Source of the DNA: a virus
Taxonomy: Duplodnaviria; Caudoviricetes
Virus record (IMG/VR): IMGVR_UViG_3300027730_000005
Direction: 5' to 3' (one strand)
Length of the DNA stretch: 64,000 nt
The position numbers were made by a program, and so were the translations under genes. The notes below the pieces were generated by a model. That model saw only the letters and a program-made list of their open reading frames with translations. It made no database searches and was not told the origin of the DNA. Positions within the stretch are counted from its first letter, which is position 1. Every line of letters begins with the position of its first letter. Shown here piece after piece: positions 3,036 to 20,538 of this stretch.

Positions 3036-3036
3036 A

Positions 3037-3999
3037 TTACCCTTTTAACATGGTAGACATGCGACGCATTTGATCCACGCTGTATTCAAAATTTGATTGT
3101 TTACTAGTGCTTTCTTGAAGTTTTGCCGGTGCTGTGCCGCCTGCTGGTATACCTAATTTTGCTCTACCTTGATCAATTACAGAAGGCTGTGTTGCTATTC
3201 TTTGACTAACTGACTGATTAGTTGGATTTGCTGGTGCCGCTGGTTTTGTTGGAGTAGCAGCCTGACCCGTCATATTAGCGGGCGGCGCCTTGGCGTAGCT
3301 GCTACGCTCTTGAGCCGAGGCTGGTCCTCTGAGGTTAGCTGCAGGGCCGCCAGGTTTTTGTGCAGACAAAATAGCGCCTGCTGTGGTAGGCCCAATAATA
3401 CCGTCAGCCGTTAAACCGTTAGCTGTTTGAAATTTCTTAATAGCATCAACATTTGGTTTATTATTCGTTAATAGTCCCATTCTAGATGCATACGCAGCGA
3501 TTGCAGGGGACATTGATTTATTAGCAGCTGGCTTAGCTGGACTTGCTGCTTGTGTAGGTGCTGCTGGTGTAGATGCGGCAGCATTGACTGCCGCTGCTTG
3601 TCCCATACTCATATCTGTAGCACTTGCAGCAGTATCGGCAGCATTGACTGCCGCTGCTTGTCCCATACTCATATCTGTAGCACTTGCAGCAGTATCGGCA
3701 GCATTGACTGCACCTGCTTGTCCCATACTCATATCTGTAGCACCTGCAACAGCGTCAGCCTTGTCAGCGGCAGCCTGTGCTGCTGCCTCTTCACCGGGAT
3801 TACCTACTCCAGTTGCAGAACTTGTTGCTGCTGGTTTACCTTTATTTGGTGCTCGCATGGCAATGTAAGGGTCATTGATGTCGGGTTTGCCGCCACCGCG
3901 GGTGTACCATGCTTGATCTTCTGGACTCATGGCTGCAAATTTGGCAGCATCGGCACCTTGGTACGGATTTGCTTCTCTTAAAAATTCTATTGATCTCAT
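3037..3999 (-). CDS. Ala-rich protein with peptidoglycan-binding domain
   Basis: IKKFQTANGLTADGIIGPTT PG-binding motif; leader MRSIEFLRE; 20-aa tandem repeats. Confidence 0.75.
   Translation of the reverse strand: MRSIEFLREANPYQGADAAKFAAMSPEDQAWYTRGGGKPDINDPYIAMRAPNKGKPAATSSATGVGNPGEEAAAQAAADKADAVAGATDMSMGQAGAVNAADTAASATDMSMGQAAAVNAADTAASATDMSMGQAAAVNAAASTPAAPTQAASPAKPAANKSMSPAIAAYASRMGLLTNNKPNVDAIKKFQTANGLTADGIIGPTTAGAILSAQKPGGPAANLRGPASAQERSSYAKAPPANMTGQAATPTKPAAPANPTNQSVSQRIATQPSVIDQGRAKLGIPAGGTAPAKLQESTSKQSNFEYSVDQMRRMSTMLKG
3576..3750. repeat. 60-bp tandem repeat, ~3 copies (in-frame 20 aa)
   Basis: gcattgactgccgctgcttgtcccatactcatatctgtagcacttgcagcagtatcggca recurs with 60-nt period. 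Confidence 0.95.
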
Positions 4000-4037
4000 G
4001 TGATATTCCTTTATGAATGACCTATGCTTTATTTATT

Positions 4038-4679
4038 CTATTTGCCCTGTGCTGCCAATCTTGCACCATTGTTAAAACTGTTGCTGTGACTGGCAGCATT
4101 TCTGTTGCCACGTGCTTTTGACCATGCATAACCAGCTCTGTGCCCAGAACAATCTTTGGTGCAAGGCGACCCCAAAAATGATAATTCATCCAACTCTTGT
4201 TTTCCAGTGTATCGTTTAATTATGGACATTGATTCCTGATCATTCAACAGAGATGCTAATCCAGGATGTAGTGGGCGTGGCCAGTCGCCAAACTCTACCC
4301 ATTCAGATCCTTGAGTTTCCCAATTTAACATTGGTTTAAATTCGTGAGCTACTATGGCTAAAAAATTGTAGTATCTAAATCCCGACGGATGCCTGAACAC
4401 ATACAACGGGATCAGTTTAAGTGGGCCGTTATACCCTGCTTCTTCTTTGACTTCTCGTTTGACAGCATGTGCTGGATTTTCACCAGCGTCGATTGCACCG
4501 CCCCATGTTCCCCAGGTGTTAGGTTGCTCCACTTGTGATGATCTATGAGCTATACAAATCCGATTGGTATCGGCTGCCAGGAACAAACAACCAGCAGCTT
4601 GCTTGCCCCAGAATCCTGTTTTCTCCAAAGCATCACGATGTTCTTTATCTGACTCAGTCACAAATTCGGTTGCTCTCAT
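4038..4679 (-). CDS. NUDIX hydrolase with C-terminal Cys-containing module
   Basis: Nudix box GGAIDAGENPAHAVKREVKEEAG; leader MRATEFVTE; tail CTKDCSGHRAGYAW. Confidence 0.9.
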   Translation of the reverse strand: MRATEFVTESDKEHRDALEKTGFWGKQAAGCLFLAADTNRICIAHRSSQVEQPNTWGTWGGAIDAGENPAHAVKREVKEEAGYNGPLKLIPLYVFRHPSGFRYYNFLAIVAHEFKPMLNWETQGSEWVEFGDWPRPLHPGLASLLNDQESMSIIKRYTGKQELDELSFLGSPCTKDCSGHRAGYAWSKARGNRNAASHSNSFNNGARLAAQGK

Positions 4680-5155
4680 TTGGCATCTCCAAAGATTGGT
4701 CCACCGACATACTGACCATTCTGACTTAACACACCATTGCGTAGATTGTTGATAATGTTATCAGTGATGTTTCTGCGACGGAAATGCGGCAAAAAAATAT
4801 GTGTTTCTACAGGACGATCGCCCTGCTCTGCTTGGATAGCATACATCCTGTGACGCCCGTCATGATCACGCACCTTGGCTTCTAAATTGAAATCATCGTT
4901 CTCCCAAGCTTCAGGAACTGCTATGGTTAAAAACGGTGCTCCAAACCCTTTATCATTGATCTGTCGGCGTAGATATTGTATAGTTTCTTTTTCGTCAGGA
5001 GAGTTAACATCCAAGGGCAAGCTGAGTTTGAGGAATGTGCTGGGTCGCATGACTGTGCGTAGACCAAAGTAATCTACATCAGCATTGTGCGGAACAGCAC
5101 CGAGACCTTGCCGATTGTCTATCTTTAGTTCCGTTATGAATTCCTTTGATCTCAT
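4676..5155 (-). CDS. ParB/Srx-like domain protein
   Basis: DHDGRHRMYAI motif; leader MRSKEFITE. Confidence 0.6.
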   Translation of the reverse strand: MRSKEFITELKIDNRQGLGAVPHNADVDYFGLRTVMRPSTFLKLSLPLDVNSPDEKETIQYLRRQINDKGFGAPFLTIAVPEAWENDDFNLEAKVRDHDGRHRMYAIQAEQGDRPVETHIFLPHFRRRNITDNIINNLRNGVLSQNGQYVGGPIFGDAK

Positions 5156-5355
5156 GTGTCTATCCTGTGTACATTGGTCACTATGCTGTCTTTGCCGTAT
5201 TGAGCTTGCAGTAATAATCGAGCCATGGCAGGTGACTTGGCAAATATAGCCACATCTATACTGGTAGTATACGAAGGATTTTTGACCCGCACAGACGCAC
5301 TATACACATGAAATCCCGGAAGCAAGTCTTCACAGAGAAATTCTGTTGCTCTCAT
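5152..5355 (-). CDS. Small protein with CTS-like leader MRATEFLCE
   Basis: Start reset to ATG 5355 (TGATG overlap with upstream gene). Confidence 0.75.
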   Translation of the reverse strand: MRATEFLCEDLLPGFHVYSASVRVKNPSYTTSIDVAIFAKSPAMARLLLQAQYGKDSIVTNVHRIDT

Positions 5356-7064
5356 CAGCAGTTCCACTTTCTCAACGCTAATGCTTTGCGTGTGGGTTTG
5401 CCATTGGGTTTTTTCATTGGCCCTTTGACTCCGCCCATCCTGGCACAGAATGATTTACGACGCTTGGCTGCTTTTGATCCTGGCTTGAGTTTGCTGGGCT
5501 TGGTAGTAACTGCCATTTGTAATTTTGAGCCTGGATTCTCTCTACGATAGCTAGCAACACCTTTGGCATTGAGACCGCCCTTTTTGCTCTTACCTGCGCT
5601 TCTACGCCAAGCTGCTGTTTCAAGAATGATTTCTTCATCGGTGAAGAAGTTGAATATGTCTTCAGTAAGACCACGATCAGCCATGGCCTGTTCAAAGTCA
5701 TCAAATATTGCATGGGCTTGTTCTAGGCTGTATACGCTTTCTGTTACACCTTCCTCTACACCCGACTGCATCTGTTGTTTGACTGCACGAGCAACATCTC
5801 CCGCCAATGCGCCAGGGTCATTATCGCCACCGTAGTTGAGCACACTCATGATTGCATTGTGAATCACACGGTCATCTGCACGACGAGCCATATTGGGATA
5901 CATGCGCTCAAACTCAGCATACACTTGATCAGCTAGGTCATCGTATTCACCGTTGAAGCCTTCATCCAGGCCATCTGCTTGTACAGCCCCTTCGCCGTCG
6001 GCATCAAAAGCTACCATTTCTACTTTGGGCCACATACGTGCAGGCACATACAGAATACCCGAAGTTTCGTCATGATCGATCTGGTCGCCAAAGCGAGCCA
6101 TTACTGCATTATATGCCCGTTCACTGTTAACGCTAAAACCCACAGTGTCCGTATCGTCAATACCGCTGTATCCGCCTTCCGCCACACCTTGCTTCTTGAG
6201 AATATCCAGTGCGTGTTTTTCCATCTGTTTTTTGGTAATAGGTTTACCGGGTGCTTCCTTACCTTTGAAATAATCAGAACCTTTTTTATCTCTTGAACCA
6301 TAGGTGCTGTGACTTACTTTGCCATCACGACCGGGTTGTGGTGCTGATTTGTCCATTTCATTCAAGCCTTCCGCCACACCTTGCTCACTTGCTTTGGCTT
6401 TGGCTTCGGCCCTGGTACGACTGTATCCCCGTGCTGTTGCTTCTCGTTCTTGGTTAGGATATATAGATATTGCAAACATTTTTCCATCTTTAACAAAGTA
6501 CCAATCTGTTGGATCTAGATCGTGTCTTTCGTCATCACCGCGATTGAACGCTCCCCTTACTCCGCGGAAAGGCCTGCCTCTGCCTTCCGCCACACTTTCT
6601 TTTTTGGCAGTCTTTGCAGCATCTTTCCAGGCCTGTGCTGTGGGGGCCTTGGGGCTGTCGGCATCTCTACTGGTACCGGCCTTCTTGCGCTTGTTTACAT
6701 TGTAGTATAACCCTTTGTTCTCCTCTGAGATACTTTCGTTAGGCACACAGTTTCTTACCTGCTTGCCAGTCACAGCTGACTTTTTTGTGCCTTCTGCATG
6801 TTTTCCTGGCCAGCACTTGGTGTAACCATTGCTATCTTTCTGACCCTTTTTGATCTCCATGATATTGCCGTGTGTTTTGCACATACCACAGTCTTCACAC
6901 ACCATTTCCATCACAACACTTTCGTTGTGTTTCTTCTTGCCAGCACAATGAGCACGTTGCGAAAAGCCTTTTGGATGAGAGCAATTGATACTGCTTTTGT
7001 ATTTTTGACTCCAGCCTTCATCTAATTTTTTGATTTTTCCAGTTATAAATTCATTTGATTTCAT
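5355..7064 (-). CDS. Modular protein of small basic/Cys-containing domains joined by acidic GVAEG-type linkers; putative internal head polyprotein
   Basis: 569 aa; modules such as INCSHPKGFSQRAHC, KCWPG, GGLNAKGVASY...RRKSFCARM; leader MKSNEFIT. Confidence 0.8.
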   Translation of the reverse strand: MKSNEFITGKIKKLDEGWSQKYKSSINCSHPKGFSQRAHCAGKKKHNESVVMEMVCEDCGMCKTHGNIMEIKKGQKDSNGYTKCWPGKHAEGTKKSAVTGKQVRNCVPNESISEENKGLYYNVNKRKKAGTSRDADSPKAPTAQAWKDAAKTAKKESVAEGRGRPFRGVRGAFNRGDDERHDLDPTDWYFVKDGKMFAISIYPNQEREATARGYSRTRAEAKAKASEQGVAEGLNEMDKSAPQPGRDGKVSHSTYGSRDKKGSDYFKGKEAPGKPITKKQMEKHALDILKKQGVAEGGYSGIDDTDTVGFSVNSERAYNAVMARFGDQIDHDETSGILYVPARMWPKVEMVAFDADGEGAVQADGLDEGFNGEYDDLADQVYAEFERMYPNMARRADDRVIHNAIMSVLNYGGDNDPGALAGDVARAVKQQMQSGVEEGVTESVYSLEQAHAIFDDFEQAMADRGLTEDIFNFFTDEEIILETAAWRRSAGKSKKGGLNAKGVASYRRENPGSKLQMAVTTKPSKLKPGSKAAKRRKSFCARMGGVKGPMKKPNGKPTRKALALRKWNC

Positions 7065-7088
7065 TTAGTTCACCTTTTTCTAACAGTT

Positions 7089-8174
7089 TCATTTGTTTTT
7101 TGCTCTTCCAGCTTTCATATTGGCCAACCAGTGTGCCATGCGTTGTTTTTCACCAGAACTGTTCTTGGCAGTTTTTCTCAAACTACTTACACTGGCTTTG
7201 GTATTTACTCCCACACGTTTGGCCAGACCCTTGCGTCCAGGATTACGGCCGTCAGCAAAGTTTTCGTCAACCGAAGACTCATTGGATGTTGCAACAGGTT
7301 GTTTGGCCTTGTAGATATCTTCCCATTTGTCTGAAATAGCATTCTTTAATTCCAGCGTGGATTTAAAATTATTGTCTTGCATATACTTAATTATCCACAC
7401 AGCACTAGCACGGTCTCCTGAATCAGGCTTGCGAGCATTGCTTAGATCCACGCTGAGATTTTGATCTTCTGATGGATTACCATAGTACCGCATGGTCTTT
7501 AACGCACGTTTTGCTCTATCACTTAGATGTGCTTCGTCGCTCTTGGTAATTAACTCAATCCAGGGCTTTACAAAGTCTGTGGGCTTGCGGGACGATCCAG
7601 CTGGTGTTGGTCCACGTAATACATCACGGGATTGGCCTGGTATCTGTGCTCGACGTTTGTTCAGCAATCGCCATGCTGCTTCGTCTGTGTAGAAAAACAC
7701 AGGTAAGCCTTGTTGCTTGGCTGTGATCAGGATCTGTCGTGTTTCTGGACTGCGATATTCATCTTGTTCTTTGAGCAACACATGAACTTCAGTCACAGGA
7801 GTGATTGGAATAGTGGGCTCTTTGCTAAACACACGGTCTTCTGCTTCTCTGGTTCTTGTACCATTGCTGTGTAACCATGCACGGTCCCAGTAGTCAATGG
7901 GTTTCACAATGTATCGAGAGTTAAACCAGTCACCATTGAGTTTGAACATCACAGCGCCTGATCCCACCCAGCGATGATAATCGCCAGTTATTGTTCGTGT
8001 CAAACTAAGAAAGTATGGATATCCAGCAGGAGCATACTGTTCTTCGCTGCGATTGCCGGTCACGCTGGCCAATTCAAAGTTGCCGGATTGCAGTATTCTT
8101 AACCCAGCTCTGATACTGGTGTAATGAAACAATACATCAGTTGCTCGTTCAATTAAAAATTCCGTTGCTCTCAT
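7089..8174 (-). CDS. Putative ADP-ribosyltransferase-fold protein with basic C-terminal module
   Basis: LFHYTS...ILQSG...FLSLTR pattern typical of ART-fold strands; leader MRATEFLIE. Confidence 0.5.
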   Translation of the reverse strand: MRATEFLIERATDVLFHYTSIRAGLRILQSGNFELASVTGNRSEEQYAPAGYPYFLSLTRTITGDYHRWVGSGAVMFKLNGDWFNSRYIVKPIDYWDRAWLHSNGTRTREAEDRVFSKEPTIPITPVTEVHVLLKEQDEYRSPETRQILITAKQQGLPVFFYTDEAAWRLLNKRRAQIPGQSRDVLRGPTPAGSSRKPTDFVKPWIELITKSDEAHLSDRAKRALKTMRYYGNPSEDQNLSVDLSNARKPDSGDRASAVWIIKYMQDNNFKSTLELKNAISDKWEDIYKAKQPVATSNESSVDENFADGRNPGRKGLAKRVGVNTKASVSSLRKTAKNSSGEKQRMAHWLANMKAGRAKNK

Positions 8175-8539
8175 TATACATACCTTGCTAGTTCATCTTC
8201 ACCTAAATCTTGTATGCGATTGGGCGGGATTTTAGTTGTGGAGAAGTACCATCCGTGGTCATATGTCAATGGAATACCCGTCACATCAATTTGCAACAAT
8301 GTCAATGGATCATCGCTACCCTCTGACTTGGCGTACATCCATCCACCGACCATACTTAGTTCTCTTTGTAACTTGACCTTATCACCTTCGTCTACAACCA
8401 TAAATGCTTTGCCATCATACGGATCTAGCCCAGCATATAGAATTTCTTCTGCGTTTTCAGTACTGGTAATATGGTACGCAGTTTTAAACTCATGGTCATG
8501 ATGTGTCCTTGATTCAGTGACAAATTCAGTTGCTCTCAT
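8174..8539 (-). CDS. Small putative ART/Tpt1-like fold protein
   Basis: AYHITSTENAEEILYAGL...LLQID; start reset to 8539 (MRATEFVTE, ATGA overlap). Confidence 0.5.
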   Translation of the reverse strand: MRATEFVTESRTHHDHEFKTAYHITSTENAEEILYAGLDPYDGKAFMVVDEGDKVKLQRELSMVGGWMYAKSEGSDDPLTLLQIDVTGIPLTYDHGWYFSTTKIPPNRIQDLGEDELARYV

Positions 8540-11500
8540 TTGGGTTCCCATTGCATACTTTTACTACCTTTAACAGTAGGAGTAAACCCTTGACCTCTGT
8601 AGAACTTGGTTAATTTACTTTGACTCACTTGTCCTTTGTCCCAAGGAAACAGTGTCAAGCTGATGCCATCTTCTCTTGCCATGGCTTGTAGTTCTTGCAT
8701 GGCACGTGACCCAACACCTTGACGTAGCGGATATGCTTGAATCCATTTGACTTCAACTGCGCCGCGCTTGCTAAAGCTAGGAACAAGTTCAAACATAGCA
8801 AACTGTTGGTCATCGCCTTTGCCCCAGACCATAACGTGATTGTTCTGCATGGTGTATGGATACTTTGCGTAGACTCGTTCAATCCATGCCTGTGCAGCAT
8901 CATTGTTGCCTAGTTTGATTCTTATTGGCTCTTCTTCTTCGGCTACATCTTTCATTAGATGTTTAGCATCGCCGGACTTCTTCCAAGCATCCCACATGGC
9001 CTTGCCAGGCGGCAATTGATTTCTACTTGGTACAATAGTGTTACCCAACATTCTCACATACGCATAGATGTTACGTGCTATACCGCGGCCTTGATATTCA
9101 AGTTTCAAGCTGGTAACTGCTGACACTAGACCATTTTTGCTGGGTCTAAATTTTGCAAGACCTATCTGTTGATAATTGTCGTCTAGCACTTTGACTTGAA
9201 AATATTCTTTACCATTTATTTCAATCCCAGTGGCACGATATGTCAGCCCATCAAAAATTTGGGTGTCGTTGAACGCTGGATTGAAAACATCTGGATTGAT
9301 AGTTTCATTTAAGTTGTTGGCCATTACTTGTGGTAAGAAACTGGCGGCAATGTGTTGGCAAGTGTTAAAAATGTCAGCATTATCAGTGACCTGCAGATTG
9401 AATGGATAGTCTGTGGTAGGATGCTGTGTGGGGTCTTGCCACCCAGCATAACATTTTTCAATACCAAAGTCAGCTAACAAATCAGTGCAACTCTCTCCAT
9501 ACCTCTCATCCATGTCATGCACACAAGGACTCAATGTAGTGACCATGATGGCATTGGGACCAATACGACCGTGACGTTTGAGATGCTGGTCTATGGCCAC
9601 TCGTTCAGCATGGCGTCGTGTTCCGTTGAGCCCAGGCAAGTTGATAGCATAAGTGTGATTGTTTTTGTTATCAATCAAACAAGCAGCCACACGTCCATAC
9701 TTTTCTGGATCAGTCTCATGACCACGATGTATCATGTTGATGCACTTTTTCAGCACATTATCTAGTTTACCAAGTTTTGTGATCTCTTGGCTTTCATCCA
9801 TATCTTCTTCACCAGGCTCGTCTAGGTCGTGTATGGGCAAGCCAAGGCGTTTGAGCTTGTGACTGTACATGTTTTCTAGCTCTTCGCTGCCAAACGCCAA
9901 CACAGTATGCGGCGGGCCTTGATTGTAATGAGACTTGTCGGCTTGATCAAGATCGCTAATGTCTTGTCCCAACTGATACCAATCTTGGGTGTCGCTCACA
10001 TCCACTTTGATTGTGCCAGCGGGCATTTTGGGAGGTGTTTCAGGACCAGTTGGTTTTTGATTGCCTAGAGCATCCAGGTCACGACGTAATCGTTGTTCTA
10101 ACACTGTGATGTTTTCTGACACTGATTGAGAACGTAGTCTCACTGAGAAGTTACTGGCATCCACTTCTGGATTTGCCTGCATTGCAGTAGCCACCCATTC
10201 TTGACCTCGACGCCAGGCTTCTGTTTGATTTGCTGCCTGTATTACAAATACTGGTTGATTGGAAGATCTATTGTATACTTCCCACTGTGTTTGTGCCATT
10301 GGGATATCTAATTCAACGTCTTCTACTCCTGGAATTGGGGTGGATGTGTATTGGTATTGTTGTTGGCTTGCTGCAACACCCATCTCTGGTACTACTGTAA
10401 CTCCAGCCTGCATACGCCCAGGATTACTACGCATCCAGTTTATGGCCACACGGTTGGCATCACTCTGTACATTGCCTACTCCCGAGAAGCGATGTATTTC
10501 TTGACCGTCCGGATTCAAGATCAACCAGTTGCCAGTGAATGTTTGCTGACCTTGACCCGGACGAGTTAAAGTTTGCGGTATGCCAACGTCAACAATGCCA
10601 CCTTGTGCTGCATCTGAATTATTGCCCTGGCGGGTACGAACACCGTACAATTCAGGAGCTTCGCCACGCATGCCTAACGCCAAACGTGCTTCTTGTTCAG
10701 CTTCGGGTCTACTGGTATTGCTCAACTCTCTCACAGTAGAGTTGTCGCTGATTCTATAGATTTCCCATGGACCTGGGCCAGTGGGCACCAAGTTGCGTGG
10801 CTGTCCTTCGCGTGGTACATTTTGTGTGCTAACGAATGCATTTGATGATCGCGCTGGCACTGTCGACGCCCGGAACAGGTGAGAACGGCCAGCGGTGTTG
10901 CCAAATATATCTGGTCTTGCTTCTCCAGCAGCTCTTATAGCGTTTAGCTCAGATGACGCACGAATTTGTATTTCTTGCCCAGGATTACCTTGTGGGCTTA
11001 CATACCAGATTGGTTGTTCAGTCTGTTGTGGTTCAATTTCACGCACTTCAATGTCAGTTATCATACGAGAATTTTGTTCACGACCTTGAGTTATGAACTG
11101 TTCAGCAGCCTCACGACTTGGGAATCTACGCAACACATTGTTGTCAGACTGGCCAGGAGCTCTAGCAAAGCGGTTCATGTCATTCATCCAAATGCCCCAG
11201 TTGCCTGTACTTGGTTGTGCGGCAGATTGTGGGCCAGGTTGTTGCTGATCACCACCACGGGCAACCACAGTGCCAGCACGATCAACTAAACTAAAGTCAT
11301 GTGGATTATTTTCCCCTGAAACAAACTGTCTAAACTTTTGTACAGCGTCTTCTTGACTTGATGCTGTGATCGATGATCTATTGTAACCGGCTCGAGCATC
11401 ATAAACGCTATAGGACAATGATGGCTTCGGATCCTGATATGGTCGTAGCGGTTTTGCCTGTAGAGTGTTCCGTGCGCTGGCCCAGTCTGGGTAGTTGCCT

Positions 11501-14500
11501 GGTTCTATAGCCTTGGCGATGGCTTCTTCCTTGCTAGAAGCAACAATTTCAATGCTGGCAAAATATCCAGGACGACTCACATCCCACCAATATTTTTGTC
11601 CCTTTGGTGTCTTGCCTTTGGCAAGATTACGGGCGAGATTCTGTTGCTCTAGTTCTTGAAAAGTTGCTTTTCTAAAGTCTTTGATGGCCTGTTGCGTTTC
11701 TTTGCTTAGTTTGTCGCCGACTTCTTTGCTATTGCCCTGCAACGATACCATGTACTTGGCAAACTCTTGAATCATATCACCATATTCGTCCTTGGTACCG
11801 TTAGGATTCAACAGTTTGTACAGCTTCTTGAGATATTCTTGGCGATACTTTTCAGGATCCATCGCAGCGTCCAGGGCCACAGTAAATCGTAATAGGGTAT
11901 CTTCAATCTTGCTGAAGTTTGAATCCAACCAGTCGCCACCCGGACTCCGGAATTCAATGTATCCTGTCTTGGTATTGATACTGGTATATTTTTCTGTAGT
12001 GCCTGTGTGAATGGCCTTGGTGGCAATGTCTTCCATGTGCTCACGCATCTTGTCCATGACCTGCGGAGCAATATCAGGATTGCGTTTCAGCATGGTTTTA
12101 ATTTTGCCAATTGCTGACTTGGCATAGTTATTGCCTGAACGTCCAAACAGTTCTAGCACATATTCATCGCCCATGAGCAGGGCCAGTTTGACATAGTCCA
12201 GTTTGTCAAGACTGTAGTTGGGTACTGAAATGTTGATATGCAAGCCAGTGCTGTCATTGGTATAGCAACCAGACTTGTCTGCCCAAGCCTTGACCTTGTT
12301 TAGATCTGAAATCATTTCATCTATGGGCATAGGCGGACTAACAAATTCTAAACCTTCGTCGCCAGGGTTGTCGCCTTCTAAACTGCCGTCAGGTTCCACA
12401 ACATAGGTACCTGCTTCACGACGGCCGCCATGGTAATTTCTACTGGCGTTCACAGGTTTACCCATGTAACTGGAGAATTCATCAGCCACTTGATCTATAT
12501 CCATGTCACCGTCGTTGCCCTCATTAGCGTCAGTGTAATAGGGCCATTCAATATCAAAGTTGCTTTCGATGTCACTCATGGTTTGATATTTGTCATCCAA
12601 GAAACTGCCTTCATCGTACTCGTCTCGTTGTTCTTCTGCAAACGCTTCAAATGCATCATTGAAGACACGGCCTTGATCTTCAAAAGCTTCCAGCACAAAC
12701 TGTTCTTGTAATTCATCAAGTCTGGCACTCAGCAGTTGAGAGAAGTCTTCGCTCTCTTGTGGCAAGTCAGGATTGGCATCCATGATTTCGTCACGAGCTT
12801 GTAGCATGGCTTCATCACGATCAAACAAGTCATTAACGTTGACAAAGTCACGCATGTAATCTACTCCATCGCGTGTCCAAGCTTCAGCAGTTTGTTCCTG
12901 CTGCCATTCCTCGTACTCGTTTTGTATTTCTTCCATTAGGTCATCTACTGCACGGCGTCCATTGTGGTCACCGTCATGGAAAAAGTCTCGAATGTCACTG
13001 AAGCTTCTGGTACGTTGATCCTGATCGTAGTCTGGTTCCCAGTCAGGTTCTTGTTCATCGACCCCAACATCGGGCACAATCATTTCAAATTCCATGCCTG
13101 CCTGTGCGCCTGTTTGTGCTGCTAACTGACGCAGATTGGTGCTGGTCATCTTGATTTCAAACAGATCTTTCTCTTTGAACTCTCGCAACATCTTGTTTAA
13201 ACCGGCTGTGAGTAATGCAGGATGACCTTGTGAATCTGTTTGTAATCCAAGTTTGTTGGCTTCCTTGCCCACAGCACCTGGACGCACATCTCGGGTCAAG
13301 GCCATGACAAATCTTGGATCGCGTGCCTGTGCCTTTGTGGGTATGTATCCTGACGCTTCTTCCAGTGTGACCCCATCAAACATTTCAGGCTGTTCTTCAG
13401 CCCACTGTCGCATGATACGGCCAGCCATGGCGTTGGCTTGGTCTTCCCAAGGGCTACCAGTTTCACCAGCATCTATAGGCAGGGGATTTCTTTCATCCTG
13501 CTGACGATGTGTCATCTCATGGGCCATGGTGCGAAGTATATCCAACACATGGCGTCCCGCGGTGGCCAAGATCAGTGTGTTGCTTTCTGGTTCGTATTGA
13601 CCAAAGCTACCGTTCTCTTGACTCCATTCTGGTGTTGTTTCCAAACGCAATCTAGGTGGATTCTCTAATTTAAGTTTATCTACACAACTGGCATAGAAAC
13701 GATGTAGGATCTTTTTCAAATGGTCAAGTTCTACACTTTCATCCACTTGTTCTGATTCAGTACCAGCAGGGTGATCTTGGCCAGCATACGCAGTACCTGG
13801 ATACCAGTAATCACGCATGCCGTAATTGACTTTCTTTCTGGCAGCAGGCTTACGATTTAAACTCAACTCACGATCTTGTATTGCTGTCTTGGCATCTTTT
13901 AATTTGCCAATGCAACCCATATTTCTCAACAATTTAAATGCAATGTTCTCGCAGCCAAACTCACCATTCTTTTCCAGGCCAGTTTGGCGCATTGTTTTGA
14001 TCTTGTCCCACAGCTGATTCACAGCATCTGCATTGCCGGACTTGATAGCTGAATGTATTCTGGCATCAAGATCAGCTGTTTTGTGTTGTACACAAGAGTC
14101 ATCTATGCTAGCACGACGGCGCTGTGGAACTTGTACCCAGTCACCATTCTTTACGCTGTAAATGCCTTGACTCACATGCTTTTGATCACTGGGCTGCACA
14201 TACAGTTCCACTGGAACGCCAGCAATCTTTATGTCATGCTCGGCATTATACTGATATTTTTTTGCATTGAACAGTTCTTGATACACAGGATCGTCAGGCA
14301 TGTCCACCACAAGGTGTAGATCAATGTCTGAATGGCGAGTATAAGAATAGGCAGCATTGCTACCTGATATGGTAATGTCCTGAATGTTGAGATCATCAAC
14401 ACCCAGGAATTCTTGAAAATTTGACGCAATTGCCAGCAACTTGTCACGCACATCAGGTAACAAGTGCTCGTCTGACCCCCACAAACGGGGGTTCAAACGT

Positions 14501-14556
14501 TGATGGAATTTTACAGCATCGGCGAGATTAAAGTTGTCAAGATCATGGAAATTCAT
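8536..14556 (-). CDS. 2006-aa multi-enzyme (polyvalent) protein: nucleotidyltransferase, zincin peptidase, amidoligase, repeats, deaminase, two GNATs
   Basis: SGSNAAY..SDIDLH; AHEMTH; PDGSL..GLEFVSPP..STGLHINI..IEFRSPG; HAE..SPC..C; YQGRGIA; LRQGVGSRAM. Confidence 0.85.
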   Translation of the reverse strand: MNFHDLDNFNLADAVKFHQRLNPRLWGSDEHLLPDVRDKLLAIASNFQEFLGVDDLNIQDITISGSNAAYSYTRHSDIDLHLVVDMPDDPVYQELFNAKKYQYNAEHDIKIAGVPVELYVQPSDQKHVSQGIYSVKNGDWVQVPQRRRASIDDSCVQHKTADLDARIHSAIKSGNADAVNQLWDKIKTMRQTGLEKNGEFGCENIAFKLLRNMGCIGKLKDAKTAIQDRELSLNRKPAARKKVNYGMRDYWYPGTAYAGQDHPAGTESEQVDESVELDHLKKILHRFYASCVDKLKLENPPRLRLETTPEWSQENGSFGQYEPESNTLILATAGRHVLDILRTMAHEMTHRQQDERNPLPIDAGETGSPWEDQANAMAGRIMRQWAEEQPEMFDGVTLEEASGYIPTKAQARDPRFVMALTRDVRPGAVGKEANKLGLQTDSQGHPALLTAGLNKMLREFKEKDLFEIKMTSTNLRQLAAQTGAQAGMEFEMIVPDVGVDEQEPDWEPDYDQDQRTRSFSDIRDFFHDGDHNGRRAVDDLMEEIQNEYEEWQQEQTAEAWTRDGVDYMRDFVNVNDLFDRDEAMLQARDEIMDANPDLPQESEDFSQLLSARLDELQEQFVLEAFEDQGRVFNDAFEAFAEEQRDEYDEGSFLDDKYQTMSDIESNFDIEWPYYTDANEGNDGDMDIDQVADEFSSYMGKPVNASRNYHGGRREAGTYVVEPDGSLEGDNPGDEGLEFVSPPMPIDEMISDLNKVKAWADKSGCYTNDSTGLHINISVPNYSLDKLDYVKLALLMGDEYVLELFGRSGNNYAKSAIGKIKTMLKRNPDIAPQVMDKMREHMEDIATKAIHTGTTEKYTSINTKTGYIEFRSPGGDWLDSNFSKIEDTLLRFTVALDAAMDPEKYRQEYLKKLYKLLNPNGTKDEYGDMIQEFAKYMVSLQGNSKEVGDKLSKETQQAIKDFRKATFQELEQQNLARNLAKGKTPKGQKYWWDVSRPGYFASIEIVASSKEEAIAKAIEPGNYPDWASARNTLQAKPLRPYQDPKPSLSYSVYDARAGYNRSSITASSQEDAVQKFRQFVSGENNPHDFSLVDRAGTVVARGGDQQQPGPQSAAQPSTGNWGIWMNDMNRFARAPGQSDNNVLRRFPSREAAEQFITQGREQNSRMITDIEVREIEPQQTEQPIWYVSPQGNPGQEIQIRASSELNAIRAAGEARPDIFGNTAGRSHLFRASTVPARSSNAFVSTQNVPREGQPRNLVPTGPGPWEIYRISDNSTVRELSNTSRPEAEQEARLALGMRGEAPELYGVRTRQGNNSDAAQGGIVDVGIPQTLTRPGQGQQTFTGNWLILNPDGQEIHRFSGVGNVQSDANRVAINWMRSNPGRMQAGVTVVPEMGVAASQQQYQYTSTPIPGVEDVELDIPMAQTQWEVYNRSSNQPVFVIQAANQTEAWRRGQEWVATAMQANPEVDASNFSVRLRSQSVSENITVLEQRLRRDLDALGNQKPTGPETPPKMPAGTIKVDVSDTQDWYQLGQDISDLDQADKSHYNQGPPHTVLAFGSEELENMYSHKLKRLGLPIHDLDEPGEEDMDESQEITKLGKLDNVLKKCINMIHRGHETDPEKYGRVAACLIDNKNNHTYAINLPGLNGTRRHAERVAIDQHLKRHGRIGPNAIMVTTLSPCVHDMDERYGESCTDLLADFGIEKCYAGWQDPTQHPTTDYPFNLQVTDNADIFNTCQHIAASFLPQVMANNLNETINPDVFNPAFNDTQIFDGLTYRATGIEINGKEYFQVKVLDDNYQQIGLAKFRPSKNGLVSAVTSLKLEYQGRGIARNIYAYVRMLGNTIVPSRNQLPPGKAMWDAWKKSGDAKHLMKDVAEEEEPIRIKLGNNDAAQAWIERVYAKYPYTMQNNHVMVWGKGDDQQFAMFELVPSFSKRGAVEVKWIQAYPLRQGVGSRAMQELQAMAREDGISLTLFPWDKGQVSQSKLTKFYRGQGFTPTVKGSKSMQWEPK

Positions 14557-14569
14557 GATCTATTTATCG

Positions 14570-15496
14570 CTATTCAGCAGTAGTGGTTTCCTCTGACACC
14601 TGTTTGTTGGTAGCAATCACTGTGGCTTCAACTGGTGTAGCGGCTGCTGTTAACTCACTTTCCGTGGGCTGTTGTTGGATCACGATCTGTGGCTGATTGG
14701 CTTGATTGGTCAGGGCAATTTGATGCAGATCTGCATACAGCTTGTCCTGGGTTTGGTAATCAAACACATAAGTTCCAGTATGTTTCAACAGCACACGTTT
14801 GTCCACAAATACTTGTCCGCCGATATCACGCCAGTTTTCGCAAAATGTCCAGTCTTCACTGTAGTAACGATTTTCACGCACAGCAGTGTCAAAGTATGTT
14901 TTCATGTAAGGGTTTAATGCTGGATCAAGTCCAATGTCGTTGATAAACGGCTTCACCGCAGGATGTGCATTGAGTTTTTCAAACACATCACGTTTGATCA
15001 ACAAGAAACCAGTACCAGTCTTGGTGACTTCAATCAAGCCAGATGGATCATTTTGATCTGCACCGGGAATACCGTTGACACACCATTTGACTGGTAGTGA
15101 TTTCATTGGATACAATCCGCCTACTACATCTTTGTCATGATTCAACATGACCAGCAAGTGCCAGGGCTCCCAACCAATGTCAGCATCAATGAACATCAAG
15201 TGTGTTGATCCTTCTGTGTTTAAGAATTTAGCAGTAAGAGTGTTTCTAGCACGAGAAATCAATGATTCATTGGTCATTGTTTCCACGGTCCAGTCCAAGC
15301 CCAATTGACGTGCTATGTTGGCCCACTTGATATAACTCATGAATGTGCTTTCAGTGAGTTGTCCACCATAACAAGGCATAGAAATATGCACTCTTGTGGT
15401 TTTTAAGTAGTCAATGTTAACTTGGATGCTTTGTTGCCCACCAGTTTGATCCACTGGGGATGCATTCTGGTAAGGTAATTGTTGTTCGTCTGCCAT
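14570..15496 (-). CDS. Glycosyltransferase (GT-A fold)
   Basis: SLISRARN...HLMFIDADIGW DxD motif; GTGFLLI; SEDW. Confidence 0.85.
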   Translation of the reverse strand: MADEQQLPYQNASPVDQTGGQQSIQVNIDYLKTTRVHISMPCYGGQLTESTFMSYIKWANIARQLGLDWTVETMTNESLISRARNTLTAKFLNTEGSTHLMFIDADIGWEPWHLLVMLNHDKDVVGGLYPMKSLPVKWCVNGIPGADQNDPSGLIEVTKTGTGFLLIKRDVFEKLNAHPAVKPFINDIGLDPALNPYMKTYFDTAVRENRYYSEDWTFCENWRDIGGQVFVDKRVLLKHTGTYVFDYQTQDKLYADLHQIALTNQANQPQIVIQQQPTESELTAAATPVEATVIATNKQVSEETTTAE

Positions 15497-15552: not shown

Positions 15553-16245
15553 CTACGACCTAGCTTCGTCCAAATAATCTTCAACCATGGGCTGATTGTA
15601 CTTGCTTTGATAGCTGGCCCGCATGCCGCCTTGGCTCATTTGACGTGTGACTTGTTCTGCAACTTCAGTGCCCATAACAGTATCCAACATCCGGACCACT
15701 GTGTTGGCCAGCTGGGGATTGCCTTGTGTTGTGGGATAAAGGCTCATGACCAATGCAGTTCGTTGGCGTTGATTTAAATCAGGCCATGCTGTGCGTATTT
15801 GTGTGGCCGATGTCATACCTGGACCAAACTCCACAACGGGCAAGTAGGTCATGTATGCGTGTTGAGTCATGGGCGCCATGTTGTCACTGATGGGTTGCAG
15901 ATATGCCGGTGTACCGTCACGTTTCACACCACCCGGCTGCGGAGGCTTGTTGGCGTCTTTTTCACTGCGCACAAAGATCAACTGTGTGTCTGCAGGGTTA
16001 TAGTTTTTTGTTATTTCTTCTGCACGAAATGGACTCTTCACTTGATAGAAATCACCTGGAGAAACTCCAGCCAATTGTGCTAGTTTTTCTTTTAATTTAA
16101 AAGGAAACGGGCGTGTTGAAGTGTCGTTGGTTGCAGCCACTTTGACATCAGCATTGGGAAATGCTCGTTGAGCAGATTTGTACAGTTCTAAATGGCCGGG
16201 GTGAAAAGGGTGTGCGCCCATTGGTAATACTACTAAAGTTTTCAT
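15553..16245 (-). CDS. HxGH-family nucleotidyltransferase (cytidylyl/adenylyltransferase-like)
   Basis: N-terminal GAHPFHPGH motif; SATQIR motif. Confidence 0.75.
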   Translation of the reverse strand: MKTLVVLPMGAHPFHPGHLELYKSAQRAFPNADVKVAATNDTSTRPFPFKLKEKLAQLAGVSPGDFYQVKSPFRAEEITKNYNPADTQLIFVRSEKDANKPPQPGGVKRDGTPAYLQPISDNMAPMTQHAYMTYLPVVEFGPGMTSATQIRTAWPDLNQRQRTALVMSLYPTTQGNPQLANTVVRMLDTVMGTEVAEQVTRQMSQGGMRASYQSKYNQPMVEDYLDEARS

Positions 16246-16250
16246 GCACG

Positions 16251-16262
16251 TATTTATAAATA
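16251..16262. promoter_or_regulatory. Palindromic pair of overlapping T4-like late promoters (TATTTATAAATA)
   Basis: TATAAATA on both strands between divergent genes 16245(-) and 16325(+). Confidence 0.65.
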
Positions 16263-16324
16263 AAGGTGTAGTTCGCGATACTGCAAATATCCAACTACTC
16301 TAACGCTTAGAAGGAGCATCAGCC

Positions 16325-17014
16325 ATGTATTTACAAAACAAATATACCCGTTGTTATTATAATATTATTCAACGAGCCAACATCAGAATTCTTAAACCCC
16401 CATACGAACATCATCATATAATTCCCCGGAGCCTAGGCGGAAATAATTTTAAAAAAAACATAGTCAAATTAACAGCACATGAACATTTTGTGTGCCACCT
16501 TTTGTTAACAAAAATGGTCGAAGGTAAGAATAGAGAAAAGATGGTTTATGCAGCCTGGGCAATGGCAAATCAAGAAAATCAAAATCAACAACGACACAAG
16601 GTTACTGGAAAAATTTATTCTATTCTAAAACAAGAATATTGTAAGGTTAAATCATTGCATACTAAACTTAACAATCCCATGCATGACCCTGAAATTCGAT
16701 TACGGCATCAAGAAGCAATTACTAAACGAGGGAAAACTTTAGGGAACACTGGACATAAACGTGGTGCAATGTCAGAAGAATTAAAAGCAATTCTTCGTCA
16801 AAAAACAATAGACTCAATGACCAGCGAAAGACGAGAACAGATTAAACAACAACAGTTAAACAGGACACCGGAACAGAAAGAAAAATATGCATTTGCTCAT
16901 TCTAAAAGAATATCATGCATATATTGTCGTTGTGTATGTGCTCCTGGAAACTTTGCCCGTTATCACGGTAATAACTGTAAATTAAATAATCTACAAGTGG
17001 CGGGCATTCAATAG
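16325..17014 (+). mobile_element. Free-standing HNH homing endonuclease with NUMOD3-like tail
   Basis: EHHHIIPRSLGG.N...NIVKLTAHEHFVCHLLL; opposite orientation to operon; AT-rich; AAGGAG SD. Confidence 0.88.
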
Positions 17015-17385
17015 GTAGCTTGTACCGTTTCAATTACACCGTCTTTGAAATTGGTGACCACTGCTCGCAACCATGTGAAGTTGCCTACTACTGCTTGTAT
17101 GTAAGTATCTGTAATAGTGCTAGAATCAGCTGAACTACCATCACCATATGCAGCTATGTCAAACCAACGTGAGTCAACAGGATCATTGTCCAGTGTGGCC
17201 TGGATTGAAACTTCACCTTGCACACCACGAAATACCCAACGTAGTGTTTGGATACCTCCACGTCCAAGATAGTAGTTAGCAGCTTTTTGTGGGTCGCCTA
17301 TAAAGTCCTCACTAGAACCGTCATAGTTACCCGATGGCACACCATACTCTGTATAGGGCACTAGTGTGACGGTGGTAATGGCCAT
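17008..17385 (-). CDS. Hypothetical (possibly virion) protein
   Basis: 125-aa ORF. Confidence 0.75.
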   Translation of the reverse strand: MAITTVTLVPYTEYGVPSGNYDGSSEDFIGDPQKAANYYLGRGGIQTLRWVFRGVQGEVSIQATLDNDPVDSRWFDIAAYGDGSSADSSTITDTYIQAVVGNFTWLRAVVTNFKDGVIETVQATY

Positions 17386-17549
17386 TATGCTCGTTCCACT
17401 TCCACAACAACACCGGGACCAGCCAGTTCTTCAGCAACTGATGCCAGTGCAGACAGCACATCGTCAGTGGCCACTGTATCTGGAGTGGTATCGTCTTTGA
17501 CCAATTTTGATAGCTTGATCACAACTATTTCTTCGTAAATTTTTGCCAT
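17385..17549 (-). CDS. Small hypothetical protein (54 aa; not in ORF track)
   Basis: MAKIYEEIVVIKLSKLVK...EVERA*; TAATG overlap; TAAATA 4 nt upstream. Confidence 0.7.
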   Translation of the reverse strand: MAKIYEEIVVIKLSKLVKDDTTPDTVATDDVLSALASVAEELAGPGVVVEVERA

Positions 17550-17556
17550 ACTGTAT

Positions 17557-18249
17557 TTATGGTCGTTTTTGCACTTGTACGGTTTTACGAGTTAGCCCAG
17601 GGCATAGCATTGCCAGCATGGTAATATGCTTGAGATCATTGTGTTCTACAAAATAATGTTCCCGGCTCCATGATGAATGCGGTTTTGTTCTACCCCATCG
17701 GTAACCTTGTAGTATAGTATCAGTGAACCATTTTTCAGTAACAGGACTGGCCACGAGATCTGGAGCCTGATGGCTGATCCAATTCCACACTGCTTGTTTT
17801 TTATCTGTGGACAGCTTCTTTTCTTTAAGATAAGTTCTGTAAGGATATTTGGGTTGATTGTTTAACATGACAACATCCCTGGAATACGCAAGTACTGCTT
17901 GTTTCATAGTGGATTTTGTTGGATAATTCCTGTACATTGTCTCAACGTCTTTGATGTCATTGGTGTACACATGAAATCTATTTTGCCCATAGGTGCGATG
18001 AATGTATGCACTGCGAAGATTTTCTAATACGTCCACTGCATGCATTATGTTTTGTTTGGTCAATTCGTCAGTCACTGGGTGTCCAACTGACAAATTATAT
18101 TGATCACGTCTATGTAACCGTTCCAGGATCTTTGTGAGAGAAAGATTGTTCAACAGCCACGCACCATCAATATCAAAACTTATTGCATATTCATACTTTC
18201 CAAAATAAAGTGATCCGCGTGGGTCACACTGTAAATAGGGTAGTGACAT
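17557..18249 (-). CDS. Hypothetical protein
   Basis: 230-aa ORF. Confidence 0.7.
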   Translation of the reverse strand: MSLPYLQCDPRGSLYFGKYEYAISFDIDGAWLLNNLSLTKILERLHRRDQYNLSVGHPVTDELTKQNIMHAVDVLENLRSAYIHRTYGQNRFHVYTNDIKDVETMYRNYPTKSTMKQAVLAYSRDVVMLNNQPKYPYRTYLKEKKLSTDKKQAVWNWISHQAPDLVASPVTEKWFTDTILQGYRWGRTKPHSSWSREHYFVEHNDLKHITMLAMLCPGLTRKTVQVQKRP

Positions 18250-20491
18250 GCTGTGGTTCCTTTAGTTCAAATACAATCTTGTTGTCTTGCAATTCTACAT
18301 TCAATGAACAGTCAGTCAATTGTTCAAACAAAATGCGTCGACTCAATGGTACACGAATCAATTCATCAATTTTGCGATTCAACGGACGAGCACCCATTTT
18401 GCTGTCGTAGCCTTTTTCTGCCAACAACTCAATCACTTCTTCAGAGAAAAACAACCGGATATTCTTTTCTGCTACACTTGATTTAAGCTGATCCAAGAAC
18501 TTCACAACAATCTTCTTGATAGCCAGGGTATCCAACTTGGTAAACTTGCAAATTTTATCAATACGATTGCGTAGCTCTGGGCGGAAGAACTCTTTCATTG
18601 CACGATCTTCTTCTCCAGATTTTTCCAAATCAGTACTGAATCCAATGTTGTTGGTTTCATTGTCTCTGGCACCTAAGTTAGATGTCATGATGATAATGGT
18701 ATTTTTGCAGTCTACCCGTTTGCCGTTTGCACCTGTTACATGTCCTTCGTCTAGCATTTGCAGCAGGATATTAGTAACATCCGAATGTGCTTTTTCAATT
18801 TCATCAAACAAGATCACAGAGAATGGATGTTTACTCAGATCTGAAATTAGTTTACCACCGCCTACATTACCATCTTCAAATCCCACATAGCCTGGAGGTG
18901 CACCAATCAAACTGCTGACAGAGAACTTCTCTTGAAACTCACTCATGTCATAACGTAACAAGTGCATGTCCAAGTTTTCACTCAATAGCTTGGCCAATTC
19001 AGTTTTGCCTGTACCAGTTGGACCCAAGAACAAGAAACTTGCCATGGGCTTGCCTTGTGTGCCAATTCCTGAGAAGTTGATATACACACGTTCTAGTACT
19101 GAATCCACAGCTTCTTCTTGTCCGTAGAGTTTTTGTTTGATGTTACTTTCTAAATCCACAATCTTCAAACTGCGTTCATTTTGCAGTCTATCAGTGGGTA
19201 CACCAGTCACTCTTGCCACTTGTTCTTCGATCATGCTTTTATTAACAGTGACCTGGCCTGCATCCCGAACACGTTCTCTAGCACAGGCAGCATCCAGCAA
19301 ATCGATACTTTTGTCTGGATTCTTCTTGTCATGAATATAACGAGCAGCAAGATCCACAGCAGCAGTCATGGCTTCTGTGTCAATCAGTACATTGTGGAAT
19401 GTTTCCAAACGTGGGCTCAGTCCAATTAGAATTTTTTCTGTAGTGTCACGATCAGGTTCATCAATGCTGAGACGATAGAACCGACGCATGAGTGCTCGAT
19501 CTTTCTCAAATGATTCGTAGTATTCTTCCCAAGTTGTGCTGGCAATAACTTTCAAATGCCCTTTGGTAATTGCTGGTTTCAACATGTTGGCAAAGTCCAA
19601 GCTGCCCGAACTGCCTGCTCCTGCACCTTTCATGGTATGTGCTTCGTCCACGAACAAAATACACTTCTTCTTGGCTTCCAGTGCAGCAATCACTGCTTTA
19701 AACTTTTCTTCAAAGTCCCCGCGATATTTGGATCCTGCTACCAAACTGCCAATTTCAAGACTCCACACTTCGTGATCTTTGAGGAACTTGGGCACACGAT
19801 TTTGTGCAATTTCCTGCGCAAGTCCTTCGATGATGGCAGTTTTGCCCACACCTGGATCACCTACCATGAGTACATTGGCTTTGAAACGACGTGCTAGTAC
19901 AGCAATCATTTCGTCCAGTTCTGTCGAGCGGCCAATTAACGGCTCTAATTGATCAGCAGCAGCCATGGCACTCAGACTGGTACAATATTCTTCCAGCACT
20001 TCAGTAGCTTGTTGACTATTCATACCTGCGGCTGCACGTTCTGACTTGTAGTTCTTGGTCCAAAAATCCACAAATTCAGCTTTGTGTACGCCGTATTTCA
20101 GCAAGAAGTAGTGTGCATTGCTGTTGGTCTCGCCCATGATGGCCAAGTACAAGTCCACAGTGACCACTTGTCTACGTCCTGTAAACAACACCTGTGTTAG
20201 AGCACGATTAAACACTCGTTCTAATGAAGCGGTTTTGCGTGGAGTCAAATCTTCCCCAGCACGAATCAGACTTTGTAGGCTTTCTAAATAGCCACACAGT
20301 TCAGTTTCCAACATGACCACGTCACAGCCATATTTGGATAAAGTTTTTCTAAATGGATCATGTCTTACGAGACTCAACAGTAAATGTTCTGTTAGCACAT
20401 ATTCGTGTTGCCATGTACGTGCGATTTGCACTGCGCCTTCGATGATAGCGTCAATTTCGGGATTGTCTTGGATTTGATTTGAATTGCTCAT
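18224..20491 (-). CDS. clpA: ClpA-type AAA+ unfoldase
   Basis: Clp N domain; two Walker A motifs (GDPGVGKT, GPTGTGKT); IGF ClpP-binding loop; no ClpB middle domain. Confidence 0.93.
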   Translation of the reverse strand: MSNSNQIQDNPEIDAIIEGAVQIARTWQHEYVLTEHLLLSLVRHDPFRKTLSKYGCDVVMLETELCGYLESLQSLIRAGEDLTPRKTASLERVFNRALTQVLFTGRRQVVTVDLYLAIMGETNSNAHYFLLKYGVHKAEFVDFWTKNYKSERAAAGMNSQQATEVLEEYCTSLSAMAAADQLEPLIGRSTELDEMIAVLARRFKANVLMVGDPGVGKTAIIEGLAQEIAQNRVPKFLKDHEVWSLEIGSLVAGSKYRGDFEEKFKAVIAALEAKKKCILFVDEAHTMKGAGAGSSGSLDFANMLKPAITKGHLKVIASTTWEEYYESFEKDRALMRRFYRLSIDEPDRDTTEKILIGLSPRLETFHNVLIDTEAMTAAVDLAARYIHDKKNPDKSIDLLDAACARERVRDAGQVTVNKSMIEEQVARVTGVPTDRLQNERSLKIVDLESNIKQKLYGQEEAVDSVLERVYINFSGIGTQGKPMASFLFLGPTGTGKTELAKLLSENLDMHLLRYDMSEFQEKFSVSSLIGAPPGYVGFEDGNVGGGKLISDLSKHPFSVILFDEIEKAHSDVTNILLQMLDEGHVTGANGKRVDCKNTIIIMTSNLGARDNETNNIGFSTDLEKSGEEDRAMKEFFRPELRNRIDKICKFTKLDTLAIKKIVVKFLDQLKSSVAEKNIRLFFSEEVIELLAEKGYDSKMGARPLNRKIDELIRVPLSRRILFEQLTDCSLNVELQDNKIVFELKEPQHVTTLFTV

Positions 20492-20497
20492 GTGGAC

Positions 20498-20526: not shown

Positions 20527-20538
20527 CCTTTCACGTAC

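Follow-up and report, generated by a model that had tools for sequence, protein, structure and literature searches.

We examined a 64,000-nucleotide stretch (hereafter the window) of the IMG/VR viral record IMGVR_UViG_3300027730_000005, in which a giant gene encodes a chain of enzymes whose modules meet at short joints ending in Glu. The window is part of a 153,873-bp contig rated 44% complete. The giant gene is a single ATG-initiated open reading frame (ORF) of 2006 codons that spans positions 8536-14556 on the minus strand. Eight modules can be distinguished in it: a nucleotidyltransferase (NTase), a zincin, a small basic module (M3), an amidoligase with a tail of repeats, a second small module (X), a deaminase and two GNAT acetyltransferases (GNAT1 and GNAT2). 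Six of the eight are enzymes. The contig carries T4-type replication and tail genes (clamp loader, baseplate-wedge-like proteins, tail fibres), and was therefore assigned to an uncultured T4-like jumbo phage of fresh water. Relatives come from freshwater metagenomes, in which their contigs reach ~365 kb. The features of the ORF are listed below, with protein positions in amino acids (aa) and the model confidence as the predicted local distance difference test score (pLDDT).

8536..14556, minus strand: whole ORF, 2006 aa, 226 kDa, isoelectric point (pI) 5.0, ATG start
13861..14556, minus strand: Pol-beta-type NTase with a C-terminal helical bundle, aa 1-232 (PHROG, Pfam, invariant residues, pLDDT 83-96)
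13738..13860, minus strand: disordered linker, aa 233-273, ends QVDE273 (pLDDT <50 over 233-274)
13357..13737, minus strand: zincin-like metallopeptidase, aa 274-400, HEMTH at 346-350, ends TLEE400 (invariant motif, topology)
13156..13356, minus strand: basic module M3, aa 401-467, 7.4 kDa, pI 9.6, starts ASGYIP (pLDDT ~55-60)
11737..13155, minus strand: amidoligase of glutamine-synthetase fold, aa 468-940 (Pfam, fold match)
10114..11736, minus strand: helical linker, aa 941-985, then seven repeats, aa 986-1481, ends SVSE1481 (comparison, model)
9793..10113, minus strand: small module X, aa 1482-1588, starts NITVLEQRLR, ends DMDE1588 (low-confidence alpha/beta, pLDDT 40-59)
9304..9792, minus strand: Zn-dependent cytidine/dCMP-type deaminase, aa 1589-1751, ends NLNE1751 (Pfam, motifs)
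8938..9303, minus strand: GNAT acetyltransferase 1, aa 1752-1873, ends DVAE1873 (fold match)
8539..8937, minus strand: GNAT acetyltransferase 2, aa 1874-2006 (weak Pfam GNAT matches)

The domain calls of an initial annotation, made from the sequence alone, all held when compared with Pfam, PHROG, invariant motifs and, for the amidoligase and GNAT1, fold matches. Its coordinates were right to within a few tens of bases for every domain. The NTase matched PHROG 36119 (E 3.6e-44), a family also known from cyanomyoviruses, Maribacter phages and Lak megaphages, where it forms a separate gene of ~230 aa; two of these records carry a nucleotidyltransferase annotation. All 48 family members that we compared matched the Pfam profile NTP_transf_2 (best E 5e-6). 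The NTase has the hG[GS]-x9-13-Dh[DE]h motif and the third carboxylate of the Pol-beta superfamily, and the five residues concerned (G65-S66...D77-I-D79...E117) are invariant among 48 diverse relatives. In the zincin, H346, E347 and H350 are invariant among 55 diverse relatives and E371, the third ligand, which sits in EDQANA, is present in at least 90% of them. The predicted topology is a helix, three strands and two helices, i.e., the order described for the zincin core (PMC5512222). As in gluzincins, HExxH lies on one helix (337-356) and the Glu ligand on the next (369-388). The Pfam matches of the zincin were all below threshold (DUF6782, Tox-MPTase3, M78, SprT and one MPTase-PolyVal). The profile of MPTase-PolyVal (PF18818) matched only one of the 55 members, and weakly.

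The amidoligase carries the motifs GMEFEMIV, GLEFVSPP, GLHINIS and IEFRSPGG, and scored 26.6 bits with Amidoligase_2 (PF12224), for a cut-off of 22. Its model aligned with the catalytic domains of glutamine synthetases (GS) with Z ~12, over ~190 residues and with a root-mean-square deviation of ~3.9. The acidic insert at aa 534-666 was modelled as a confident helical bundle. The deaminase matched PF00383 (E 5.7e-10, 39.4 bits for a cut-off of 25) and has the zinc motifs HAE (1649) and PC..C (1677-1690). GNAT1 matched GNAT structures (ESCO1, Eco2, HAT1, AAC) with Z 9.7, and shows the acetyl-CoA loop motif QGRGIA at 1822. The Pfam matches of GNAT2 itself were weak (E 0.003-0.006), and those of its homologues, to PF13508/PF00583, were clear. 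A 676-aa frame on the same contig, just outside the window, contains a stretch 42% identical to residues 1809-1872 of GNAT1 (G000:C1:27691-27876, minus strand).

M3 and the repeats resemble no family that we could find. M3 (~67 residues, ASGYIP...DPRF...KLGL) is bounded by Glu joints at both ends, had no family match and gave a low-confidence AlphaFold model. Its place is always upstream of the amidoligase, and in some proteins other modules separate the two. The repeat unit is ~55 aa long (beta-beta-alpha-beta) and present in seven copies. Of 266 family proteins, 165 contain such units, 348 in all. No known family matched them, and searching the ESM Atlas with the repeat region brought no usable match. 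With DUF2188 and Phage_ORF5, considered as candidate identities of the repeats, only two of 27 units matched, below threshold. The AlphaFold models covered aa 1-1000 (mean pLDDT 82) and aa 1336-2006 (mean pLDDT 67.5); in the fold searches with these multi-domain models, a single domain took up the whole list of matches, GS in the first and GNAT1 in the second. The NCBIfam search gave nothing informative for any module. Sequence and profile searches against the PDB sequences with the NTase, the zincin, the GNAT region and the repeats gave no significant match, the best being 2rff, a 'putative nucleotidyltransferase' (E 0.15). A megablast of the giant gene against 50,697 phage records gave zero matches.

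The giant protein belongs to a large family with a constant core. We identified 1119 related proteins with a word-indexed search, and 7359 representatives of 50%-identity clusters with an exhaustive search using aa 1-950 (E ≤ 1e-3), of which 2098 had E ≤ 1e-30. Residues 1-930, zincin included, were present in all of the 119 best matches, whereas the C-terminal half was variable: ~47 relatives had the deaminase, ~20 GNAT1 and ~5 GNAT2, and others ended in M23, ParB, SET or peptidoglycan (PG)-binding domains. Judged from the sequences, this is the architecture of polyvalent proteins as defined by Iyer et al. 2017. The number of disparate effector-type domains in such proteins, from two to fifteen, includes that of the giant protein (six enzyme domains plus repeats). 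The analogy with polyvalent proteins drawn in the initial annotation is thus borne out by the domain set and by its variable combinations among relatives.

The seven hydrophobic-x-Glu sites that had been placed at the domain boundaries all exist (E273, E400, E467, E1481, E1588, E1751 and E1873). The motif itself is not over-represented: the ORF contains 21 [LIV]xE for 24.8 expected from its composition, i.e., no overall excess. The segments of low confidence in the AlphaFold models are 233-274, 397-403, 446-465, 1477-1528, 1578-1599, 1707-1751 and 1868-1883, and each of the seven sites lies inside, or at most two residues from, a linker with pLDDT <50. Ten of the 25 [LIVM]xE sites fell in residues with pLDDT <50, which make up 16.7% of the modelled residues (binomial P 0.005; Fisher test among Glu residues, P 0.011). 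According to these models, the placement of the sites is more than chance, although their number is not.

To read the joints across the family, we located each module with BLAST in sets of 266 to 430 related proteins and noted the residues that precede it. The amidoligase joint has Glu at P1 and Leu or Ile at P3 in all 208 proteins. P2 is unconstrained (F, D, N, G, S, T, M, L, P, R, A, Y or E) and the sequences further upstream are unrelated between proteins. Among 211 proteins with M3, the residue before [AS][ST]GYIP is Glu in 173, and in most others Glu lies one residue upstream; the joint is kept whether M3 is preceded by the zincin, by Gln-rich linkers or by a ParB domain. The deaminase joint is [VLMI]-x-E before S[RQ]EITKL in 43 of 46 relatives, and the GNAT1 joint is L/V-x-E before xINPD in 16 out of 16. 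Before module X, V-x-E was found in 19 of 35 aligned rows, including every row with a SITVLEQRLR start. The joint between NTase and zincin reads QVDE in close relatives; distant relatives have M-F-L-[SN]-E. The junction motif is kept in hundreds of relatives whose architectures are shuffled. A near-invariant Glu at P1 and Leu/Ile/Val at P3, combined with a free P2 and free upstream sequences, point to selection on the motif itself.

The same modules also occur as stand-alone proteins, and these start with a short leader that ends where the joint ends. The leader has 9-20 residues and reads M-[RK]-x-x-E-F-[IV]-x-E, typically M-R-A-x-E-F-[IV]-x-E. In 31 stand-alone amidoligases, only 11-21 residues precede the joint, and they form M[RK]..[ED][FIL] leaders, e.g., MRAKEFLKLFE/VRMNP and MRFKEVKKIIKEAEEAQQLME/INMSP (the slash marks the joint). 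Stand-alone deaminases start MRLREFDESDYE/IHNRPKLD. Stand-alone GNAT1 proteins have MRATEFVTE/EINPD where the giant protein has NLNE/TINPD, and stand-alone GNAT2 proteins, 88-90% identical to the module, have MRATEFITE/EHEPTRIKL where it has DVAE/EEEPIRIKL. The leader was present in 39 of 43 stand-alone deaminases and in 104 of 116 proteins with a GNAT module. These alignments make four joints (amidoligase, deaminase, GNAT1, GNAT2) positionally homologous to the last three residues of the leader. Inside M3, the giant protein even retains a nearly complete leader, the relic M457-LREFKEKDLFE467, which aligns with the first of the amidoligase leaders above (MRAKEFLKLFE/VRM). A second type of leader, M-L-I-[RK]-[ED]-L-[IL]-E-N, replaces MRAxEF before GNAT2 in nine of the 116 proteins, among them P0363, P0376, P0393, P0402, P0414 and P0435.

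The genes next to the giant gene carry the leader too. The strict form M[RK]xxEFxx[EG] begins exactly seven ORFs in the 154-kb contig, and all seven are directly downstream of the giant gene (window 3999-8539). They encode proteins of 121, 361, 569, 67, 159, 213 (NUDIX) and 320 aa (PG-binding). Synteny and the leader array are kept in relatives, with other payloads. Two features flank the giant ORF:

8536..8539, minus strand: ATGA in which the giant ORF's stop codon overlaps the start codon of the first leader-tagged gene (MRATEFVTE...)
14557..14575, minus strand: GATAAATA followed by 4 nt, directly upstream of the giant ATG, resembling a T4 late promoter

No Shine-Dalgarno sequence is visible upstream of the giant ATG. 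At the giant gene and in two relatives, TAAATA lies 4-5 nt before the ATG, in the same absence of a Shine-Dalgarno sequence. It was found at most 25 nt upstream of six of the 65 minus-strand ORF starts, for ~0.4 expected, the other starts being at 16245, 25711, 29669, 43084 and 44013. From their sequence and position, these motifs look like T4-type late promoters with very short transcript leaders. The 569-aa leader-tagged protein (window 5355-7064, minus strand) ends in a DUF6321 domain (E 1.7e-21). The same domain is found again in leader-tagged genes of relatives, and as a fusion partner of the stand-alone deaminases P0276, P0281 and P0283. After the array comes a LysM-lysozyme gene with the start MKLFDFLSE; array and lysozyme together occupy 2391-8551 of the window (minus strand).

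A leader of this kind is known from T4. The capsid-targeting sequence (CTS) of T4, MKTYQEFIAE, loads internal proteins, or any protein fused to it, into the prohead and is removed by one cut of the head protease (PMC8442874; PMC9026906), and the internal proteins of T-even phages share only this targeting tag (PMC3012670). Prohead proteases of the T4 family cleave after Glu at a short motif (PMC5694885). The leaders described here have the same end as the T4 CTS, E-F-[IV]-x-E. In a relative whose giant homologue is 69% identical (G003), we identified gp23 (E 2.8e-99) and a gp21-type protease (213 aa, E 9e-26), which adjoin each other and a scaffold-like protein.

Two cultured phages encode homologues of the amidoligase module. 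The product of gp196 of Agrobacterium phage Atu_ph07 is 31% identical to it over 288 aa (E 2e-30) and starts MRWQDISSKKLTE/LKMNSS. Its gene is two genes from the portal gene, and the protein was detected in virions by 14 unique peptides (30% coverage; PMC6102473 Table S5). The homologue gp26 of Ralstonia phage RsoM2USA starts MKLIQKLSE/LKMD. Both resemble the giant protein in that a short leader or joint ends in L-x-E directly before [IL]-K-M. They differ from it in being single-module proteins of ~500 aa, annotated as hypothetical. The nucleotidyltransferase gp195 of Atu_ph07 ('T4 GC1542') adjoins gp196 on the opposite strand (L025, 154929-157431), and is not detectably related to the NTase of the giant ORF (E 1.1).

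The reading that we favour, with moderate confidence and on comparative grounds, is that the giant ORF encodes a polyprotein of virion cargo, which is loaded into the head, cut after the Glu of its joints and ejected with the DNA. The protein would be made late and would enter the prohead, perhaps through the internal relic at 457-467 or through another contact. There, a gp21-type prohead protease would cut it after Glu into about eight products, of 31 (NTase), 14.6 (zincin), 7.4 (M3), 114 (amidoligase and repeats), 12, 18, 14 and 15 kDa. Amidoligase and repeats would form a single 114-kDa product because there are no joints between the repeats. Once ejected, the products may act on molecules of the host or of the phage, the reactions being nucleotidylation, amide ligation, deamination and acetylation. 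The initial annotation had already proposed cutting at the Glu sites by a head-maturation protease, and comparison now lends this strong support: the joints are conserved, they are homologous to leaders, a gp21-type protease occurs in the lineage and the sites are placed in linkers. The cleavable chain that it described is supported in part: such sites do not separate the repeats, and the chain has no N-terminal leader.

Several observations weigh against this interpretation. The giant ORF starts MNFHDLDNF, without the leader that would target it, and relatives consisting only of NTase and zincin also lack one, starting M-N-x-x-[ED]-L like the giant chain. We considered M-N-[IFLT]-x-E at the N-terminus as a mini-propeptide and rejected it, position 5 being Asp in the giant ORF. 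The over-representation of [LIV]xE that we looked for across the giant ORF is absent, and L-x-E-I-x-M could be conserved because it caps the amidoligase structurally, not because it is cut. The giant gene lies outside the head and tail modules, ~145 kb from the head module in G003. On its own 154-kb contig, which is a fragment, the Pfam models of gp21 and gp23 matched nothing. Finally, the chain carries a putative protease of its own, the intact zincin, with a catalytic H-E-x-x-H...E that is invariant or nearly so.

The chance-level number of sites would suit a protein that stays uncut, as one large multi-enzyme scaffold, packaged or not, in which the joints are evolutionary scars of the fusion of leader-tagged genes. 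The internal M457-LREFKE does resemble the relic of a former gene start, and both the N4 virion RNA polymerase and some plasmid polyvalent proteins are delivered uncut (PMC5512222). We nevertheless regard this as unlikely, given that the P1 Glu and P3 are near-invariant across representatives of 50%-identity clusters and behind different upstream neighbours, and that all seven sites are in or beside flexible linkers. Processing by the embedded zincin rather than by the prohead protease, in cis or in trans on leader-tagged cargo, is a possibility that the initial annotation left out. The zincin is part of the universal core of the family, and zincin metallopeptidases are a hub domain of polyvalent proteins, which they were proposed to autoprocess (PMC5512222). 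Yet zincin-free proteins, namely stand-alone deaminases, GNATs and amidoligases, bear the leader with its [LIV]xE site too, which argues for a protease acting in trans; this could be either gp21 or the zincin itself. We know of no zincin of this type with P1-Glu specificity. Head proteases of the T4 family, on the other hand, cut after Glu, in agreement with the motif, and one relative encodes a gp21 homologue, so that we find the zincin a rather improbable processing enzyme.

One might also see in the giant protein a cytoplasmic enzyme of infection, acting, e.g., on nucleotides, cell wall or proteins and never packaged, with leader-like sequences that are recombination joints or translation signals. 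Instead of head genes, its neighbours indeed include genes for chaperones (DnaJ, ClpB-like) and for a cytidylyltransferase-like protein, and neither the giant ORF nor the NTase-zincin relatives have an N-terminal leader. We think this highly improbable: the giant gene heads the leader-tagged array and is translationally coupled to it, it has a late-promoter-like motif upstream, and the Atu_ph07 homologue of its amidoligase is found in virions and encoded near the portal gene.

Compared with known systems, the cargo polyprotein that we favour would stand between T4 internal proteins and polyvalent proteins. As in IPI, IPII, IPIII and Alt of T4, a short leader ending in hydrophobic-x-Glu is found on unrelated cargo (MKTYQEFIAE versus M-R-A-T-E-F-V-T-E), the lineage has a gp21-family protease, and cargo genes are clustered and highly variable. 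Alt is an enzyme, a likeness to the enzyme payloads described here. In contrast to T4, the cargo modules are also fused into a 226-kDa chain with the cut-site half of the leader at each joint, the chain itself lacks an N-terminal leader, and the payloads (NTase, zincin, amidoligase, deaminase, GNATs) are not known from T4 heads. Polyvalent proteins likewise combine many unrelated effector-type domains, including zincin, GNAT and Pol-beta NTase, in one phage polypeptide with a variable C-terminal architecture, and their delivery with the DNA was proposed (PMC5512222). The same study proposed release by embedded peptidases, whereas the joints here carry the motif of a trans-acting T4-type head protease and derive from targeting leaders; amidoligase domains go unmentioned in it, and its NTases are a minimal firmicute family fused to ArdC-N (PMC5512222). 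The jumbo phages phiKZ and SPN3US also pack many proteins, and their gp21-related protease cuts after Glu, in some proteins at several sites (PMC5694885). Their ejection and inner-body proteins differ in motif (A/S-x-E) and lineage, and do not consist of recognisable enzymes strung together for separate release.

The literature that we searched treats T4 capsid-targeting sequences and polyvalent proteins separately, with embedded peptidases proposed for the latter, and we found in it no description of enzyme polyproteins delimited by a head protease. If the giant protein is such a polyprotein, uncultured T4-like jumbo phages of a large and widespread group have an enzyme kit ready in the capsid. 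Its joints would be recycled cut sites of targeting leaders, linking the T4 CTS to polyvalent proteins, and cleavage in trans by the head protease would replace the proposed self-processing by embedded peptidases. The payload (NTase, zincin, GS-like ligase, deaminase and GNATs) would act at the first moment of infection. We put forward a broader version only tentatively: the leader-coding sequence with its [LIV]-x-Glu end would be a universal cassette joint, injected enzymes being shuffled by T4-like jumbo phages between single genes and 'cargo trains' that the head protease uncouples after loading. The constant head of this train, NTase-zincin-M3-amidoligase, could then be a dedicated protein- or peptide-modifying machine instead of several independent effectors; the amidoligase could act, e.g., on carboxylates of Glu, such as those that cleavage by the protease exposes.

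Upstream of the giant gene, a block on the minus strand (15553-21321) encodes a DnaJ-like protein (260 aa), a ClpA/ClpB-like AAA+ protein (755 aa), a cytidylyltransferase-like HxGH protein (230 aa) and a PHROG 1574 protein (308 aa). The order of the block is the same in the relatives L003, L007 and L008. On the opposite strand, within this block, we found a homing-endonuclease-like gene (16325-17014, plus strand; PHROG 655, E 1.8e-35). It is present in contigs of the identical phage and absent from that place in L008, and is likely a mobile insertion. Elsewhere in the family, the contig of P0185 (ENA ERZ27275305) encodes a SprT-like zincin, two amidoligases, a GH19 lysozyme and an SNase nuclease as separate genes. 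Between its two amidoligases lies a gene for a GGACT/AIG2 gamma-glutamyl cyclotransferase, and this pairing of ligase and cyclotransferase hints at gamma-glutamyl chemistry.

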